A stretch of DNA of 64,000 bases from Sporopachydermia quercuum (Eukaryota), in contig BCGN01000003.1 in assembly GCA_001599295.1 (NCBI GenBank), forward strand, positions 1,240,001 to 1,304,000, written 5' to 3'. Within the stretch, counting starts at the first letter, position 1. Each line of letters starts with the position of its first letter. Under the pieces are notes generated by a model, which saw only the letters and a list, made by a program, of their open reading frames with translations, ran no database searches and was not told where the DNA came from. A program made the position numbers and the translations under genes. Positions 15,214 to 62,535 of this stretch are shown here, one piece after another.

Positions 15214-16377
15214 TTACAAGGAAGATGATAATGTTTCAGAAGCAACATTTGCTACATCAATAGGTCTATCTTGAGTATTGCTTTGAGCGCTCTTTCTTTT
15301 CTTCAGAACATTTTCAATGAATGCTTCACCAGCTTTATAGGAACTTCTCACCAATGGTCCAGATGCAACATACAGAAATCCTAATTCCAGAGATCTTTCT
15401 TTCCAGTAATCAAACTTCTCAGGTGTAACGTATTCAACAACCTTCATATGTCGTTTCGTGGGTCTCATATATTGACCAAATGTAACAACATCGACTCCTG
15501 CTTCTCTCAATTTCTTAAGAGTGTTGTCGATTTGTTCATCAGTTTCACCAAAACCAAGCATAATAGAGGTCTTGGTTATGAGAGATGGAACTGTTTGTTT
15601 GGCGTGTCTAAGAACTGATACGGATTGTTTGAATGTAGCTCTTCTATCACGAACAAAAGGGGTTAGTTCTTCCACTGTTTCCACATTATGGGCAAAAACA
15701 TCAAGACCTGACAAAGCCAATCTTTCAACATCTGCTAGATTGCCTCTGAAGTCACCGGATAACGTCTCCACTAAAATATGGGGTGCTTTTGACTTTATTC
15801 TTCTGACAGTATCAGCAAAATGAGCAGAACCACCATCAGACAAATCATCACGATCGACAGTTGTCAGAACAACATAACCGAGACCCCATCTAGCAATAGC
15901 TTCTGCAGTATTCTCGGGTTCATGAGGATCAAGAGGTCCTGGTGTTCGTGATGTTTTAACTGAACAGAAACGACATCCTCTTGTGCAAGTATCACCCATA
16001 AGCATGATTGTCGCAGTTGCTGTAGATTTATCAGTCCCACCCCAGCATTCTCCAATATTTGGACAACGTGCTTCTTCGCAAACTGTGTGTAATTTAAGTC
16101 CATGTACATCTTCCTTCAGCTTGGCAAAATTCTTTCCCTTTGGGATCTCAGTTTTTAACCACGATGGCAGTCTTTTTCTTTCTGTTGTGCTGTTCAAAGC
16201 CTCAGCGATGGGATCATATTGATTCATGTTAGCTGCTCTTTTATTCAAGAAATCATCAAACGATGGTCCTTTATTTAATGTGTCTGTGAATGTTGTACGA
16301 CGACGTCTTCTAGTCGGTTGGCTCAATGATGCCAACCGCCTTACAATAACTTTGCTCTGAAGTCCTGTGCTTGTCAT
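15214..16377 (-). CDS. LIP5: Lipoyl synthase, mitochondrial
   Basis: [12 protein letters not shown] and radical-[11 protein letters not shown] motifs; GPLVRSSY. Confidence 0.97.
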
Positions 16378-28869: not shown

Positions 28870-29466
28870 TTAAACCTGAGTCATGTTGGGGATTCCGACC
28901 TTTGGAGCTCTGGCTGAACTTCTGGAAGGCAAGCCAAAGGCACCGTTTCTGAATACATTGACAACAGAAATAACCAAAGTTGCTAGGAAAATAAAGAAAG
29001 AGAAGTAAAGGAAGGCAACGGTAGCTTGAGCCTTTCTACATCTGTCGGTAGATCCTTGAGTGACGGCATTCCCATCCAGATAGCTGCGGTTGGTGCAGGA
29101 GTGAACACGGATGGCAACGGCCAAGGCAGTTGCACCAGCAAAGGAGAAAACAACTGACAAAAAGTCTAAGATAGATAAAATAACAGGCCAGGCTAAAGCT
29201 TGGAAGAATCCAGCAACGATGTTGTAGAAAAATCCAAAAACAAGACCCCAAACAGCGGTGAAAATGCTATTACAGTTAGTATATCATCTCTGAAATAAGG
29301 AAGAGTGTTAATTGCTTGGAATGCATAATCTAAGTACTTACACAAAGTTCACTTGAGGATTGGTCTTATGTTGAGTAGCCCTAAGACTGGCACTTAAACC
29401 AAGAACAATAACAAGGAAAACGAAATTCGTTGTTCTTAGGGCAATATCGGTAATTGTAAAACCCAT
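28870..29466 (-). CDS. NCE102: Eisosome/MCC tetraspan MARVEL protein; exons 29466-29342 and 29266-28870
   Basis: Intron 29341-29267 (GTAAGT..ACTAAC..TAG) joins MGFTITDIALRTTNFVFLVIVLGL..NPQVNFVIF to AIRVHSCTN..RCRKAQATVAFLYF. Confidence 0.93.
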
Positions 29467-31099
29467 TTTCTTTTATAATGTGCTGTGTTGTGTTGTGTGA
29501 TGTGTAATGATAGTGTATATCAATACAAGCTGTTGTTGATTTTTATAATCTGATAAACTTGAAAAATCTATTGGTTAGATACAAAATTCATATGAATTGT
29601 TTGTTGTTAGAAAGCACTATACATATAAAAACCAGGGAACCGGTATGAAATTGTGAGAAAAGGAGAAAAAGAAAAAGAAGGAAACATTTCCAATATAAAT
29701 GAAGTATTTATTATCAGTTTTAATAAAAGGTTTGAATAAGCAAAACAAAAACAACCGTTTTAAGATTAACATTTCACTAAAACTGCAAATTATGAAAGCT
29801 TAGCGTGTGTTTCAGGTTTACCAATGTTTCCGCACAAAAAAGTTTATTATGGTGGTGAATCTATGTTGTATTTACGTATAAATCTCCACCAGTTTTTCAT
29901 TTTAGAAGAGTGAAGGAGTGAATGAGATAAAAGATGAGTATTCTAAAGAGCTTTGAATCAGCATTGATTAAGTCAAATTATAAAGGTTTGAGAGACAGAA
30001 TTAAGAATGGAGAGAAGATTTGATTCGTTCTTTACCTACTTATTGCTAAGTTGAAATCTATAACCCCTGGAGAAGCGTTATATTCGTTTCTGTATGATGC
30101 AACTCCAAACTATATCAGTATTATTATAGAATAAAGAATCTATTATAGAATTAATTGGTTTTAAACCCATTGCTGCACTGCACTCGCCAATGAAAGAATC
30201 ACCACCGTTAAAACTCTGAAGTGTTCTGAAGAGTTAATGTTTCTTCTTTCGCTGTCGCCTTTACCAATGACGGCGAAAAAGTAACAATATGTGCCTTGAA
30301 GCTTCCTATTAAAGTCACTCACACATCATTTTAGATTTCTGTACTTAACAGACAAGGCCTTCGTTACGAATACATATATATGTTCAATGACTTCATAGAA
30401 AAGGAGTTCCTTTATGTTAGGTTAGGTCTTGAAATACATTTTTTTGTTTTGATATATACGAAGAGAAGAAAACTTGAAAAAGCCTTGTAGTTACTTATTT
30501 GGTGGGCGAGCAGATTGATCGCAATGGAAAGTACTGTTTTTTTATTATTATCGAATAGACGGTTTATTTGTAAATTTACTCATCCTGACCATGGTCTACC
30601 CACTGATAACGGCAATTCTAACATATTCAATAGGCTGATATTGGTAGTGGGAAATGGATATTTCTATTTCAAGACAATGATTAAATGTTATTTTTAAGAT
30701 TTATAAACAGCACCGCAAGTAAAATATATGTTTAAAATATATGTTCAGTCTATAAAGACTGAATAGCTTAACATTGAATGAAAGAAGAAAAGAAAAACCT
30801 CTTTGGTCGTGAATGAGGTTTATGTCAAAATTGAAATGGCCATTGAAAGAGTCAATCAGTATGAGATCACCTTTTAAGCTTCACTACCTGTTTCTGTGAC
30901 TTCAATTAACTCAATAGTAATCTGTAAATGTTCCTTCAATGTTTATTGAAACAGAAACAATGAAATATATTGATGTGTGGTTATCATTCCTAACCGTTCC
31001 TTTCAATATCGGTGGCAGATGAAATGACTATACAAACTATTTGCATCATCAACTGTAATAGATTCTTAGGTTAATTAGGTAAGCATCACAGTTGTTAAA

Positions 31100-32085
31100 G
31101 ATGTACATCAGTATACTCGCTTACTTCGATCGGTTGGTTTAGTAATGATAAAGCAGAGTCTAGGAAAGGGGCTCTTCGTTTGAGCCGTATAATCTAAAGT
31201 TTCCCTTCATCTCCGCTTCAGGTTCGCTGTTCCTATACTAATATTCGAGACAGTTTTTCCGCTTTAACCAAATTCGACTGATTATAAGAGGAGAGGGTCA
31301 GGTGAGCAGTCGGCTTTAAAATTATCTTAGAGCCGGCTCCAATCGTTACCGCTGTCCTAACCCTTCCTATGTCTCTTGCACACTATAGCAATAGTATATT
31401 TTATTGAATCCACCTGCTAACATACGTTCTTTCACTTGATAACTTTGTGGTCAGATGTTTGAATCCCCATTGCTAACTCCCTCATCATATTCTTTTCTGA
31501 CATCATACACCCTACTTTGTGATTAAATTCTCTTGTTTTCTTTCAACCCCAATTTGCCTTCTTTCCTAATAGGGGAAGGTGACGAATCTCACCTTACAGA
31601 GGTTGCTCATTCTAGATGACCAACTCAATTGACGTTAGGTAGGACATCAACCCACAGAATACTTCAAGGAAATCAATGGCTTTGATGATTTACTTCACCC
31701 ATTGAGTATTTTAGAACTTGCAATAGTAGAATATTCGAATAATTGTTTTCGTTGTTTATCACTATAATTCACCTGCGACCTTCAAGCGCTAGGGAGAGGT
31801 AGAGACCAAGACAGTCTCTACAAGATATGCAGTATGATGCAGGCTTCGTGTACGCAACAACAACCCAAGATGATCCCTTGTGATAAGGTTCAGTCAGTCA
31901 TGCAGAGTAGTAAGTAAGGCTCCGAGAGTGCCGGATTGGTATACCTAACAAGAGTGGTACGGTTCTGGAAAGAAGACTTGAGCTGTTTAGAAGTCGGAAG
32001 GATGAGATGGTTGGTGAAGAATGTAGAAGGGAAAAGATGGTGATAGTTTACTATTACTATGATGGGAGACTTATTTGGTATAAAT
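31100..32085 (+). ncRNA. Putative telomerase RNA (TER); ends approximate
   Basis: Template TCCTAACCCTTCCTA 31355-31369; boundary helix 31299-31354; long-range pairing 31173-31228 with 31981-32020; P6.1-like AGAG-TGGTACGG-TTCT 31951-31966; no ORF. Confidence 0.65.
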
Positions 32086-32676
32086 TGGTTGGTAGTATAT
32101 TTTGAAGAATAGTTTTGATGCTTTTGTTCGATTTATATGATCTATGCTGCAAGAGAAACATTGATTATGCCCGACTATGCAACAAAATCCCCTAGGTGCA
32201 TTTCCAATAGCCTTTATGTAATAATATGAGCAAATCTGTGGATCATGTTGTTTTGAAATACTCTATTATCATATAGTTCGATAAGAATTTATTAAAAATA
32301 ATTGCATATGGCAACTTTCTATTTTTCTCTTCTAAGGAAGTTCTGCCGCTGATACTAGCAAATTATTGTCTCTATCCCATACTCCCTAGCATTAACCCCA
32401 CACTTCCTAATATTCTCGAGACCCTCGTCAAAAGACCTCATGGATGGAATATGTCGATGTCACGCAAATGACAAGCTCTGTCAAATCATTTACGTCACAC
32501 TTCTCAATCCACTCCTGACAATCTTTGTATATTCGCAATCTCAATTACCTTCTTCAAACATGAACAACTATCAATCGCCATCTCATTTGTTCTAGCAATG
32601 ATATCCAATTCAGATGATATTCTCACATCTCATGTTCTCAGACAATTGATGAATCATTTATAATATTTTCCTCACA

Positions 32677-34767
32677 ATGGGAGAAAAAAGTATCATCAAA
32701 AGGCAGTTGAAAAGCCTTTTGGATCTACTAGACCAGCAAGCAGCTCCAGTTTTGTCATTCCCATTATCATCTAATGACGATACTGAGAAAATAAATAGTG
32801 AAAGGATAGAGGCGAACAATTATAAGGTCTCCCTTCAGAATGTCTATTCAGTTCTCCATAACTCATTTAATCCTTCCTCGGGAAGAACTATCAAACACAA
32901 GAACACATTGTCTCTGGTCACCAAAGTACTCCAAGTTCTCAAATCGTGTCATACTGATCCAATTCTCAATGGTGATCGTTCGTCAGATGATTCATTCGTT
33001 CTTCAGAATGTGATATTAGCTTATTGCTCTGTCGTAATTTACTACTACTTAGTGGAAGACTTGCTAAAGGAAACTCTGCCTGTATCAACAGACATTTACT
33101 ATTGGAATGATGTTCAGTCTTCATATCTTGGATTATCTCTCTACTCTCTACAGACTATTCCCTTAAGAATAAAAAAGCTTTTGCTGGAAGTGTATAATGA
33201 GAGCATTGCAATTGACGTTGATAATAAGTTATTAAGTATCGAGAGAACTGACAATGTCACTACCAAAGCTTTAAAACAAATCAAAAATGTTATACGTCGT
33301 TGGGTTGAAGTATTCAAATCTGTCATTGATAAGAATCAAAGAATGATCAAATCGACATCCAAATTCGTTTTATCCTCAATTGAAGGGAATACCCAAATTG
33401 TCATGACAAGTCTAAAGGAAAGCCCAAAATCAGCTAATTCTGCCTCTAATTTATACCATGATTCTTTATTTTCAGTCAACCATAAACGACCAAGAATAGT
33501 AGTTCCGTCTATACTACAGTTGATTCTGTCACCGCAAATGATAATTGAAAAGGAAGTTAGGACCAATCAAGAAACACTAGTGAAAGCAAGAGATCAAAAG
33601 GCTGAAGCTTTGGGAAAGTTGGTTCAAAGTTCCCCTTCAGAGCTTTCGTTGTTCGAGAGTTGGCAAATAATCGAACAGTGCACTAAAATAATGAATGAAA
33701 TATTTGAATGGTCTTCAACATCGCCAAGATATATTACAATCAATTCCGAGGACGATTTTCAATCAAAATGTGACTCGTTGTTGGTAATCATCAGCAATTG
33801 TATTCCAGAATTCAATTCTCAGCATCAAGAAATACTTTGTAAATGTGGTAAACCTAGTAGGCTTATNAGATATTGGCCTGGTCTTATCATTACAACTTTC
33901 ATATCAACAATCGTTGTTCCATACGTCTTCAACAACTGGAAATTAATTTTGCAGTGGGTCAAAATCAATTTGGTTGATACTGTCAAATTATTCATTGAAA
34001 ATTGGATCATTGATCCAAGTGTCAAGATATTGCACACTATTCGTCATGATGATAATTCTCGTATTGCTTTGATATCAAAAAAAGCTTTACAAGCAGATTT
34101 GGAGTCTTTAGAAAGAATGGTGATTGATTTCACCTCTGACGCTCAATCGGGGAGTTTACTCCATCAAACTCCGGGCTGGGAAAATCAAATCAAATCAGAT
34201 ATTCAACAAGGTGATTTGACATTGCTAATGAAACCATATGAAGAACAAATAAAAACACCAGTGACAAGCCTAATCAAAGGGTCGTTGATCAGATCGTTAT
34301 TAATTCAGCTACAGAAAACAAAAGTTGACGTTGATACTGCGGTTTCTGGTATTGATCAGTTATTGAAAAGCCAAGAGTTGGTGTTTGGTATAGTTGCTAT
34401 TCTACCAAGTTCTGTTATATCTTTGTATTTGGTGCAGTGGTTGTATGGAATTTTTGTTACTGGCAGATCTGTTAGGGGAAATGGATTGAGACGTGAAGAA
34501 TTGAGTATGGTATTAGGAGAAATTGAGAAATGTCTTATTTCTGGTATGACTAGTGAACAAAAAACTCAACGGTTGGATTTTAAGAATGAAGGGCTTTTAT
34601 TATGTGAGATAAATGTATTAAGAGATATCAGTACTAAAGTGATATCTAAATCTAGAAGAAGTAAATGGTTTGATGATTTGAATGACTTAGAGGATTTCCA
34701 ATTACCTGTTGATGTTAGATTGAAGGCTGTTCAAAGGATATGGCATGTATATAGGAAGTATTTATAG
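32677..34767 (+). CDS. NCA2: Nuclear control of ATPase protein 2 (mitochondrial outer membrane)
   Basis: GKPSRL.RYWP, NWIIDP...TIRHD, SLERMVIDF, LLIQLQKTKVD...GIDQLLKSQELVFG. Confidence 0.92.
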   Translation: MGEKSIIKRQLKSLLDLLDQQAAPVLSFPLSSNDDTEKINSERIEANNYKVSLQNVYSVLHNSFNPSSGRTIKHKNTLSLVTKVLQVLKSCHTDPILNGDRSSDDSFVLQNVILAYCSVVIYYYLVEDLLKETLPVSTDIYYWNDVQSSYLGLSLYSLQTIPLRIKKLLLEVYNESIAIDVDNKLLSIERTDNVTTKALKQIKNVIRRWVEVFKSVIDKNQRMIKSTSKFVLSSIEGNTQIVMTSLKESPKSANSASNLYHDSLFSVNHKRPRIVVPSILQLILSPQMIIEKEVRTNQETLVKARDQKAEALGKLVQSSPSELSLFESWQIIEQCTKIMNEIFEWSSTSPRYITINSEDDFQSKCDSLLVIISNCIPEFNSQHQEILCKCGKPSRLXRYWPGLIITTFISTIVVPYVFNNWKLILQWVKINLVDTVKLFIENWIIDPSVKILHTIRHDDNSRIALISKKALQADLESLERMVIDFTSDAQSGSLLHQTPGWENQIKSDIQQGDLTLLMKPYEEQIKTPVTSLIKGSLIRSLLIQLQKTKVDVDTAVSGIDQLLKSQELVFGIVAILPSSVISLYLVQWLYGIFVTGRSVRGNGLRREELSMVLGEIEKCLISGMTSEQKTQRLDFKNEGLLLCEINVLRDISTKVISKSRRSKWFDDLNDLEDFQLPVDVRLKAVQRIWHVYRKYL

Positions 34768-60680: not shown

Positions 60681-62535
60681 ATGGGTATTGCCGTTGTCGA
60701 CTCATTTTATGCTTCTTTAGGTGAAGCGTTAGGCACCACAAGTGGTCAACTCAGGCTGATGACATGTCTATTTCTATCATATCCTCTATGTGGGACATTG
60801 AAAAGAATACCACCAGGGAAAAAGTATTCCAAGCAATTATTCATAATTGCAGTTGCAGCGTTTTATCTGTTTGTTATTTTGTCGCTATTCAGTGGTATGA
60901 GAACATTACTTATCAGCTCCACATTCACGTACATTGTATCGCGATACTACAAATCTTCATTCATGCCGTGGGTCAATTTACTGTTTCTTATGGGCCATTT
61001 GGCATCAAACCATTTTGCTGCACAGTTTTTCCCTCAGGAGTACAACCCTGATGAAATTGACATTACAGGTACTCAAATGGTGCTAGTCATGAACTTATCT
61101 GCTTATGGTTGGTCTGTTTATGACGGAAGACTCCCTGACTCAGCGCTATCATCGTATCAAAGGGGTAGAGCGATTAAGAAGATTCCAACTGTTATGGAAT
61201 ACTTTTCCTATGTTTTCTTCTTTCCTGCTTTTCTCATTGGTCCCTCAGTGGAATATAACGATTTTGACAAATGGCTCACTTTAGAGATGTTTAATGATGG
61301 TAAACAGAAAATAGGTCAACCTGCTAGAATTCCTAGTAGCATTGGTCCTGCAATGTTCAAATTGTTTCAAGGTATTTTTTGGGTTTATGCATTTTTGAAC
61401 AGCTCGATGCTTGCTTCTTTGGATTTTGCCTTAAGCACTGAGTTCTCCAAGAAAAGCTTTGTCTTCAAGATATTCTATCTATGGGTTCTAGGCTTTGTTT
61501 ATAGATTCAAATACTATGGTGCTTGGTCTATCAGTGAAGGTGCTTGTATACTTTCTGGTTTGGGATATAACGGCAAAGATAGTAAAACTGGTAAGATCAA
61601 ATGGAACAGAGTTCAGAATATTGATATTCTGGCTTTTGAAACTGGTCAAAACTGTCACATATGTTTAGAAGCTTGGAATATGAACACCAATAGATGGCTG
61701 AAGAATTACGTGTATCTTCGTGTGACTCCAAAGGGTAGAAGACCTGGTTTCAGGAGTACACTTATTACTTTCATCACATCAGCATTTTGGCATGGAACTC
61801 GGCCTGGATATTATATGAGTTTTGCTACTGGTGCATTGATTCAAACATGTGGAAGATACTATCGACGACATATACGTCCTATTTTCATGGAAGCAGATAA
61901 AGTCACCCCAGGAGCAAATAAGAAGTATTATGATATAATCAGTTATATTGTCACACAGTTAGCATTTGGCTATTTAGTTCAACCATTTATGATATTAGAT
62001 TTGGGACCCTCGTTGAAACTATGGGCTTCAGTATATGTAAGTGCTGCTTTACTGAATTAGGCTCCTTTGGGCCGTTTCTTTCCTACTTCCTATAGATTGC
62101 TAAAGATTTTTATTTTGGTACTAACAATTTTTCTAGTTCTATGTTCATGTTCTGATGTTTGTCACTATTTATTTATTTAGTGGAGCTCAGAAGAAGAAGA
62201 CAATAGCTTTCCTTGAGAAGTACTACCCGGCTGCAGAACCTTCACCAGCTCAAACAATTAAATCAACTAAACTTGCTGAAGTGCTGAAAGAGAAAGAAGA
62301 TTATGAAAATAGTGAGCAAGTTTTCGGTGTCCCTGCTACTGGCTTCGATGAAATCGGCATGGATGAAGTGGTAGCTGATATAAATGAAGCTAGAAAGGCT
62401 ATACAAGACTGGAAAGAAAGAAGAGGGTCTGTAGCGGAGGAACAAGCTGTGCGAAATGCTTTTACTCAGTTACGTAATGATGTGCAGTCAAGCCTTAAAG
62501 GTGATTCTATTGCACCTGATAAGAAGGAAGATTAG
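60681..62535 (+). CDS. ALE1: MBOAT lysophospholipid acyltransferase; exons 60681-62036 and 62137-62535
   Basis: WNMNTNRWLKNYVYLRV, SAFWHGTRPGYY; intron 62037-62136 (GTAAGT..TACTAAC..TAG) gives SVY|FYVH. Confidence 0.93.

Follow-up and report, generated by a model that had tools for sequence, protein, structure and literature searches.

We identified a candidate gene for telomerase RNA (TER) in a 64-kb stretch of contig BCGN01000003.1 (positions 1,240,001–1,304,000; hereafter the window, numbered from its first base). A 15-nucleotide motif at 31355–31369 has the layout of a telomerase template, and we give roughly even chances to the reading, drawn from the DNA sequence, that an early-branching budding yeast uses it as its TER template. 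Should this be correct, the telomeres of the organism would plausibly be (TTAGGAAGGG)n. Four features speak for this reading. The motif lies in the one non-coding GC-rich island of the window; a boundary-like hairpin and an Sm-like end share the strand of its C-rich form; its unit comes from a repeat class documented in related lineages; and the motif is repeated locally far beyond chance. The locus is a plausible and testable candidate.

31355–31369, + strand: candidate TER template, TCCTAACCCTTCCTA, a 10-nucleotide unit plus a 5-nucleotide alignment redundancy

The initial annotation had described this motif as a single 10-nucleotide unit followed by a 5-nucleotide terminal redundancy, and the letters bear this out: TCCTA, ACCCT and once more TCCTA, that is, one unit plus exactly five repeated bases. 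The neighbouring bases, G at 31354 and T at 31370, leave the redundancy unextended. Even with one mismatch allowed, TCCTAACCCTTCCTA is the single match in the window on both strands. Its reverse complement, TAGGAAGGGTTAGGA, contains six of the ten phases of the unit GGGTTAGGAA, of which TTAGGAAGGG is a circular permutation; the window holds neither a literal match to TTAGGAAGGG nor a telomere-like tandem array. The assignment of the repeat to the TTNNNNAGGG class, also made in that annotation, holds for the predicted unit only: it is 10 nucleotides long and consists of TT, a 4-nucleotide spacer (AGGA) and AGGG.

The motif is real as a sequence, but it is weak evidence when taken alone. The expected number of exact 15-mers per window is 0.01 (one of 100 shuffles had a match), a figure that is post hoc, and one strand of the real window alone has 132 instances of a bare 5-nucleotide redundancy at spacing 10. 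As detailed below, the motif alone is not beyond chance, and its weight therefore rests on its surroundings.

31100–32110, + strand: GC-rich island free of open reading frames (ORFs), candidate TER body, with a 5′ end perhaps near 31040 and a 3′ end that we infer near 32110

The motif stands about 250 nucleotides into this island, which is the sole GC-rich stretch of its gap and makes up about 1 kb of the 64 kb. We compared the 13 gaps in the window that span at least 700 nucleotides without a stop-to-stop ORF of 90 codons. The gap holding the motif (29284–32652) is the longest, with 3369 nucleotides against 1815 for the runner-up. It also has the highest GC content over 300 nucleotides (0.457, compared with at most 0.397 in the others) and the longest run at a GC content of at least 0.38 (727 nucleotides, compared with at most 390). 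Measured in segments of 200 nucleotides, GC content is 0.38–0.455 across 31100–32099 but mostly 0.27–0.335 in the flanks. None of the 11 peptides from short ORFs in and around the island matched a family at the Pfam cut-off, and the longest ORF of the island (80 amino acids, − strand) had no relative among 1.84 billion representatives. The gap is bounded by a ubiquitin-conjugating enzyme gene together with a small ORF, and by NCA2; the motif sites are 1.3–1.9 kb from the nearest start codons. Upstream of the island, positions 29284–31100 comprise about 1.8 kb of AT-rich DNA (GC 0.27–0.37) free of ORFs, in which no feature was recognised, with sub-threshold Rfam matches that are weak and belong to unrelated families.

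31305–31353, + strand: predicted hairpin, candidate template boundary element, directly 5′ of the motif

The core of the hairpin comprises 12 base pairs (31308–31319 with 31327–31338), and three additional pairs (31305–31307 with 31351–31353) end one nucleotide short of the motif. The 106-nucleotide fold that contains it has a predicted energy of −34.8 kcal/mol (z −2.93), and 2 of 200 shuffles folded equally well. The 12-bp core was kept in all four folds in which the bounds were changed and the template was forced to be unpaired. When fold segments of 200 nucleotides were taken over 29400–32699, only 31200–31399 stood out, with z scores of −2.39 on the + strand and −2.52 on the − strand.

32099–32105, + strand: Sm-site-like ATTTTGA, fitting AU4–6GR, at the 3′ edge of the island
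31423–31620 (C/U-rich) with 31897–32025 (G/A-rich), + strand: predicted long-range arm of about 12 short helices

The consensus for Sm sites is AU4–6GR, and ATTTTGA is the only match to this pattern on the + strand of 30400–32700, about 745 nucleotides downstream of the motif. Roughly one match would be expected by chance in this interval, and only the position of the site is informative. No 5′ splice site was found downstream of it. The helices of the long-range arm recurred under all five bounds tried. Their pairing gain is −37.4 kcal/mol, compared with −24.4 ± 4.9 in 60 shuffles (best shuffle, −37.7), giving a z score of −2.67 that is biased upward because the segments were picked after the fold had been seen; on the − strand the z score is −1.37. 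Some fungal TERs are 3′-processed through spliceosomal cleavage. Inside the island, GTAAGT at 31910–31915, which resembles a 5′ splice site, is followed 27 nucleotides on by the imperfect branch point TACCTAAC at 31942–31949. A spliceosomal 3′ end via this pair was not adopted, because no Sm-like site precedes the two elements and the branch-like site is imperfect.

31289–31302, + strand: G-rich ‘anti-template’, AGGAGAGGGTCAGG, a near-match to the predicted G-strand 13-mer
30988–31001, + strand: second motif copy, TCCTAACCGTTCCT, identical at 13 of 14 bases, 367 nucleotides upstream, in AT-rich DNA

Two further versions of the motif lie close by. The G-rich one, AGGAGAGGGTCAGG, equals the predicted G-strand 13-mer save for one inserted base and one substitution, and 0.0011 such matches are expected by chance within 100 nucleotides upstream on the same strand; looser 12-mer matches, at an edit distance of at most 2, are frequent (40 loci in the window). 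For the second copy, the number expected is 0.000185 (14-mer with at most one mismatch, within 400 nucleotides on either side, both strands), and this copy has a 4-nucleotide redundancy of its own at spacing 10, a 10+4 layout. With up to two mismatches, the 14-mer has no occurrence in the 64-kb window beyond the known copies, despite about 20 other intergenic regions. Because the local repetition exceeds chance, some constraint acts on the motif sequence here, a point against pure coincidence that leaves constraint on RNA undistinguished from constraint on DNA. Possible roles for the two extra versions are a promoter element, a template mask or protein sites; the copy at 30988–31001 could serve as an alternative template or as an element near the promoter.

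The predicted repeat was compared with published ones. The initial annotation had set it beside the Yarrowia lipolytica repeat, TTAGTCAGGG; the two indeed differ only by TC versus GA, two bases, in agreement with the published repeat. Closer counterparts are found in supplementary table 1 of PMC7857110, namely TTAGGCAGGG in Y. alimentaria and Y. hollandica and TTATGAAGGG, listed as putative, in Middelhovenomyces tepae; each is one base away from TTAGGAAGGG. Repeats of 10 bases are common among the early-branching entries there, including Nadsonia fulvescens, Candida incommunis, C. hispaniensis, two Blastobotrys species and Diddensiella, and the N. fulvescens repeat, TTGAGGACGG, ends in CGG (PMC7857110). 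The table notes also document heterogeneous repeats and boundary slippage in yeasts (PMC7857110). TTAGGAAGGG itself was absent from the consulted part of supplementary table 1 of that paper. A full-text literature search on its permutations, judged by titles and the starts of abstracts and with figures and most supplements outside its reach, returned no report of it as a telomere repeat.

The locus resembles the TERs of the Yarrowia clade in several respects (PMC6746865). There, a TTNNNNAGGG repeat is found in 12 of 13 species, and TAACCC is reported as conserved in the template domain of the 10 aligned TERs; our motif TCCTAACCCTTCCTA contains TAACCC and, like their templates, comprises about 1.5 copies of a 10-nucleotide TTNNNNAGGG repeat. 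Their genes occupy intergenic loci of about 1 kb and have a helix 5′ of the template (PMC6746865), to which the candidate gene and its predicted hairpin would correspond. The imperfect Sm site near the 3′ end of those RNAs may have a counterpart here in the Sm-like ATTTTGA (PMC6746865). Their promoters carry a conserved TAAC element about 40 nucleotides upstream of the start that is required for function (PMC6746865). The second motif copy at 30988–31001 contains TAAC and would stand about 40–110 nucleotides upstream of the proposed TER start; by analogy, it may be linked to that element. In contrast, the spacer here is AGGA, whereas those reported for the clade are AGTC, AGGC, AGCG, AGCC or ATAC, and the Yarrowia-clade TER lies between homologues of FRE2 and FRE3, whereas the gap described here lies beside a ubiquitin-conjugating enzyme gene and NCA2 (PMC6746865). 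GC content here is about 36%, and by protein identity the organism is not closely related to Yarrowia, its lipoyl synthase being 75% identical to the Yarrowia row of our tree alignment. Unlike in the Yarrowia-clade TERs, a pseudoknot and a three-way junction were not found here.

In Saccharomyces and Kluyveromyces, the TLC1 and TER1 RNAs are made by RNA polymerase II and measure about 1 kb; they combine a template with a boundary helix and long helical arms, and an Sm site lies close to the 3′ end. The proposed job and this general plan would be common to them and to the present locus, where both are predicted from sequence. In contrast to those RNAs (Rfam family Sacc_telomerase), the locus gives no covariance-model match, their junction geometry was not found, and the template and repeat sequences are unrelated.

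In our proposal, transcription of the TER gene would run along the + strand, starting at about 31040–31100 and ending at about 32110, and would yield an RNA of about 1 kb with its template some 255–315 nucleotides from the 5′ end. Such an RNA would be similar to the Y. lipolytica TER, which is about 950 nucleotides long (PMC6746865). The telomere 3′ end (...TAGGA) would align on the 3′ TCCTA of the motif, after which reverse transcription would copy the template toward its 5′ end at 31355, where the hairpin at 31305–31353 would halt copying. Each round would then add AGGGTTAGGA, giving telomeres of (AGGGTTAGGA)n, which equals (TTAGGAAGGG)n.

Weighing against this reading are a low prior for the window, the frequency at which motifs of this class arise by chance and the failure to find TER-specific structure. 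A random 64-kb window of a genome of about 17–18 Mb rarely contains the single TER gene. The motif class comprises 15-mers on either strand that have a 5-nucleotide redundancy at spacing 10 and whose unit fits TTNNNNAGGG. Over 300 first-order Markov simulations of the window, such 15-mers averaged 0.23 per window, and 17% of the simulated windows had at least one; because of this rate, dozens of chance look-alikes would be expected in a genome of such size. No Rfam family, the telomerase ones included, had a match at gathering score in the window, and at E ≤ 10 the four matches in 29400–32700 all belong to unrelated families. Homology searches detect yeast TERs only with great difficulty (PMC6115765), and the silence of Rfam is therefore expected and counts as weak evidence. 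A descriptor of the budding-yeast three-way junction, built on the rule L1=0, L2=A, L3=GU (PMC2094081), returned no candidates (0.145 per shuffle); this is a Saccharomyces/Kluyveromyces rule that a variant form could escape. A relaxed, vertebrate-like P5–P6–P6.1 descriptor that used the P6.1 rule of PMC3592445 likewise returned none, with little power given 2.81 candidates per shuffle. No convincing triple-helix pseudoknot could be defined 3′ of the template, for which no pseudoknot-capable program was used; U-rich tracts are present at 31490–31499, 31528–31546 and 31553–31570, and one of them pairs with the purine tract 31968–31977 in the folds. Over its full length, the island does not fold better than shuffled sequence (z −0.24 on the + strand, −1.04 on the − strand). 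In unconstrained minimum-energy folds the template pairs with 31289–31302, unlike the free template that the reading implies, and the second copy makes it questionable which of the two copies, if either, serves as the template.

The main rival, which we consider unlikely, is that the sites are DNA targets of a protein, for example a Myb-type telomere-repeat binder, placed either in regulatory DNA or at a locus for some unrelated non-coding RNA, and that the 10+5 layout is incidental. Three versions of the motif within 380 bp and in both orientations (30988 on the + strand, 31355 on the + strand and the complement at 31289–31302), beyond chance and with a conserved core of 13–14 bp, are typical of such clusters, and no TER-specific structure was found. 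Yet the 14-mer, with up to two mismatches allowed, occurs nowhere else among the roughly 20 other intergenic regions of the window. Moreover, the sites are 1.3–1.9 kb from the nearest start codons, and both the 1-kb non-coding GC island and the exact 5-nucleotide redundancy are left unexplained. Ranked next, and also rather doubtful in our view, is coincidence: the motif would be a chance 1.5-repeat, the real TER gene would lie elsewhere, and the island would be another non-coding transcript or plain intergenic DNA. In its favour are the simulated rate of the motif class and the 34% of the window that is outside ORFs of at least 90 codons, and no homology or structural hallmark of a TER was found. 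Chance does not readily account, however, for a second copy 367 nucleotides away (0.000185 expected) and a complementary one within 100 nucleotides (0.0011 expected), nor for the position of the motif inside the longest ORF-free gap, within its single GC island, where a predicted hairpin immediately precedes the motif and an Sm-like site lies at the 3′ border of the island.

Two narrower alternatives were also weighed. The locus could be a TER that makes another repeat, either because the upstream copy at 30988–31001 is the template (giving TTAGGAACGG) or because shifted boundaries yield a variant or heterogeneous repeat; this we regard as quite improbable. The upstream copy has its own 4-nucleotide redundancy at spacing 10, CGG-ending repeats are found in related lineages such as N. 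fulvescens, and repeat heterogeneity with boundary slippage is documented in yeasts (PMC7857110). Nevertheless, this copy is outside the GC island, in AT-rich sequence, has no strong hairpin adjacent to it, and does not contain the TAACCC conserved in Yarrowia-clade templates (PMC6746865). A very improbable alternative takes the 80-nucleotide imperfect palindrome at 31289–31368 for a small mobile element with inverted repeats, or the remnant of telomere-like sequence inserted within the chromosome, rather than part of a TER. Its outer arms, 31289–31302 and 31356–31368, enclose the 12-bp inner palindrome, and the folding signal at 31200–31399 is alike on both strands (z −2.39 and −2.52), as expected from symmetry at the DNA level. 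On the other hand, no other copy of such an element exists in the window, and the island, the same-strand copy at 30988 and the exact 10+5 periodicity are unexplained by it.

If the locus is indeed a TER gene, it might carry three versions of its own telomere sequence, namely the template, a masking anti-template upstream of it and a promoter-proximal copy, and the telomerase would then be self-regulating; we hold this elaboration to be improbable. In one variant, an RNA switch would free the template only in the assembled enzyme. In another, a telomere-repeat-binding protein on the TER promoter would couple TER output to the protein that is not bound at telomeres. The local repetition of the motif is in any case a small puzzle that could bear on TER regulation.

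Were the TER reading true, it would add a telomerase RNA and a new AGGA spacer variant of the TTNNNNAGGG repeat, from a yeast lineage without a close relative among the proteins found (see the best identities below). It would support the published model in which the ancestral budding-yeast TTAGGG first gained a short spacer, and it would give the search for TERs a place to begin in neighbouring lineages, where detection by homology fails. If, instead, the chromosome ends carry another repeat, the motif would be a coincidental resemblance, of which about one is expected per four or five windows.

A metagenome scan for three tandem units of the predicted repeat returned a single locus (L001), which was rejected as not being a telomere. 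At 2522–2600 this locus, which is unrelated to the window, holds an internal, decaying array of 6.5 copies of the same 10-nucleotide unit on a contig that is GC-rich by eye, and C-rich telomere-like fragments follow the array on the same strand.

The window as a whole is compact fungal DNA with a GC content of 36%. Of five sequencing runs listed, three contain the stretch, all of them DNA contig sets from one organism, and no RNA run with it was listed. Its ORFs match lipoyl synthase, a ubiquitin-conjugating enzyme, NCA2, TAF4, condensin Cnd1, a fungal TACC protein and others, and EF-2 was recognised among them from its translation. In the lipoyl synthase ORF (15214–16377), CTG codons stand at positions that are leucine in all 60 homologues (residues 70 and 171) or in 59 of 60 (residue 358); in the ALE1 ORF (60681–62060), residue 340 is such a position in 60 of 60. 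Because the CTG codons align with conserved leucines, CUG is read as leucine, and the CUG-Ser and CUG-Ala yeast clades are therefore excluded. Among the matches listed, named homologues are distant (65–77% identical for lipoyl synthase and about 47–55% for ALE1), and the best identities are 81% and 61%, respectively, each over only about 80% of the query.

A lipoyl synthase tree was built from the query and 24 rows chosen from the named ones among 120 listed matches. The query fell outside a clade, supported at 100/100, of Saccharomycetaceae, Phaffomycetaceae, Babjeviella and CUG-Ser yeasts, and within an unresolved group with Yarrowia, Magnusiomyces, Nadsonia and Trichomonascaceae. The earlier suggestion of an early-diverging yeast receives weak support from this tree and from the CTG codons at conserved leucine positions. 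On the evidence of this one gene, it is reasonable to regard the organism as an early-branching budding yeast.

Several minor features of the window were also recorded. Across it, 18 isolated N bases occur (for example at 67, 23913 and 33867), some of which give X in the EF-2 and NCA2 translations. The ALE1-like MBOAT ORF at 60681–62060 (+ strand) encodes 459 amino acids, compared with about 520–640 in most homologues listed, and the gene probably extends past an intron or has an earlier start. Next to the gap that holds the motif, two adjacent hydrophobic ORFs lie on the − strand at 28870–29283 and 29338–29472 (137 and 44 codons, stop to stop); they may be exons of one small membrane-protein gene with a short intron between them.

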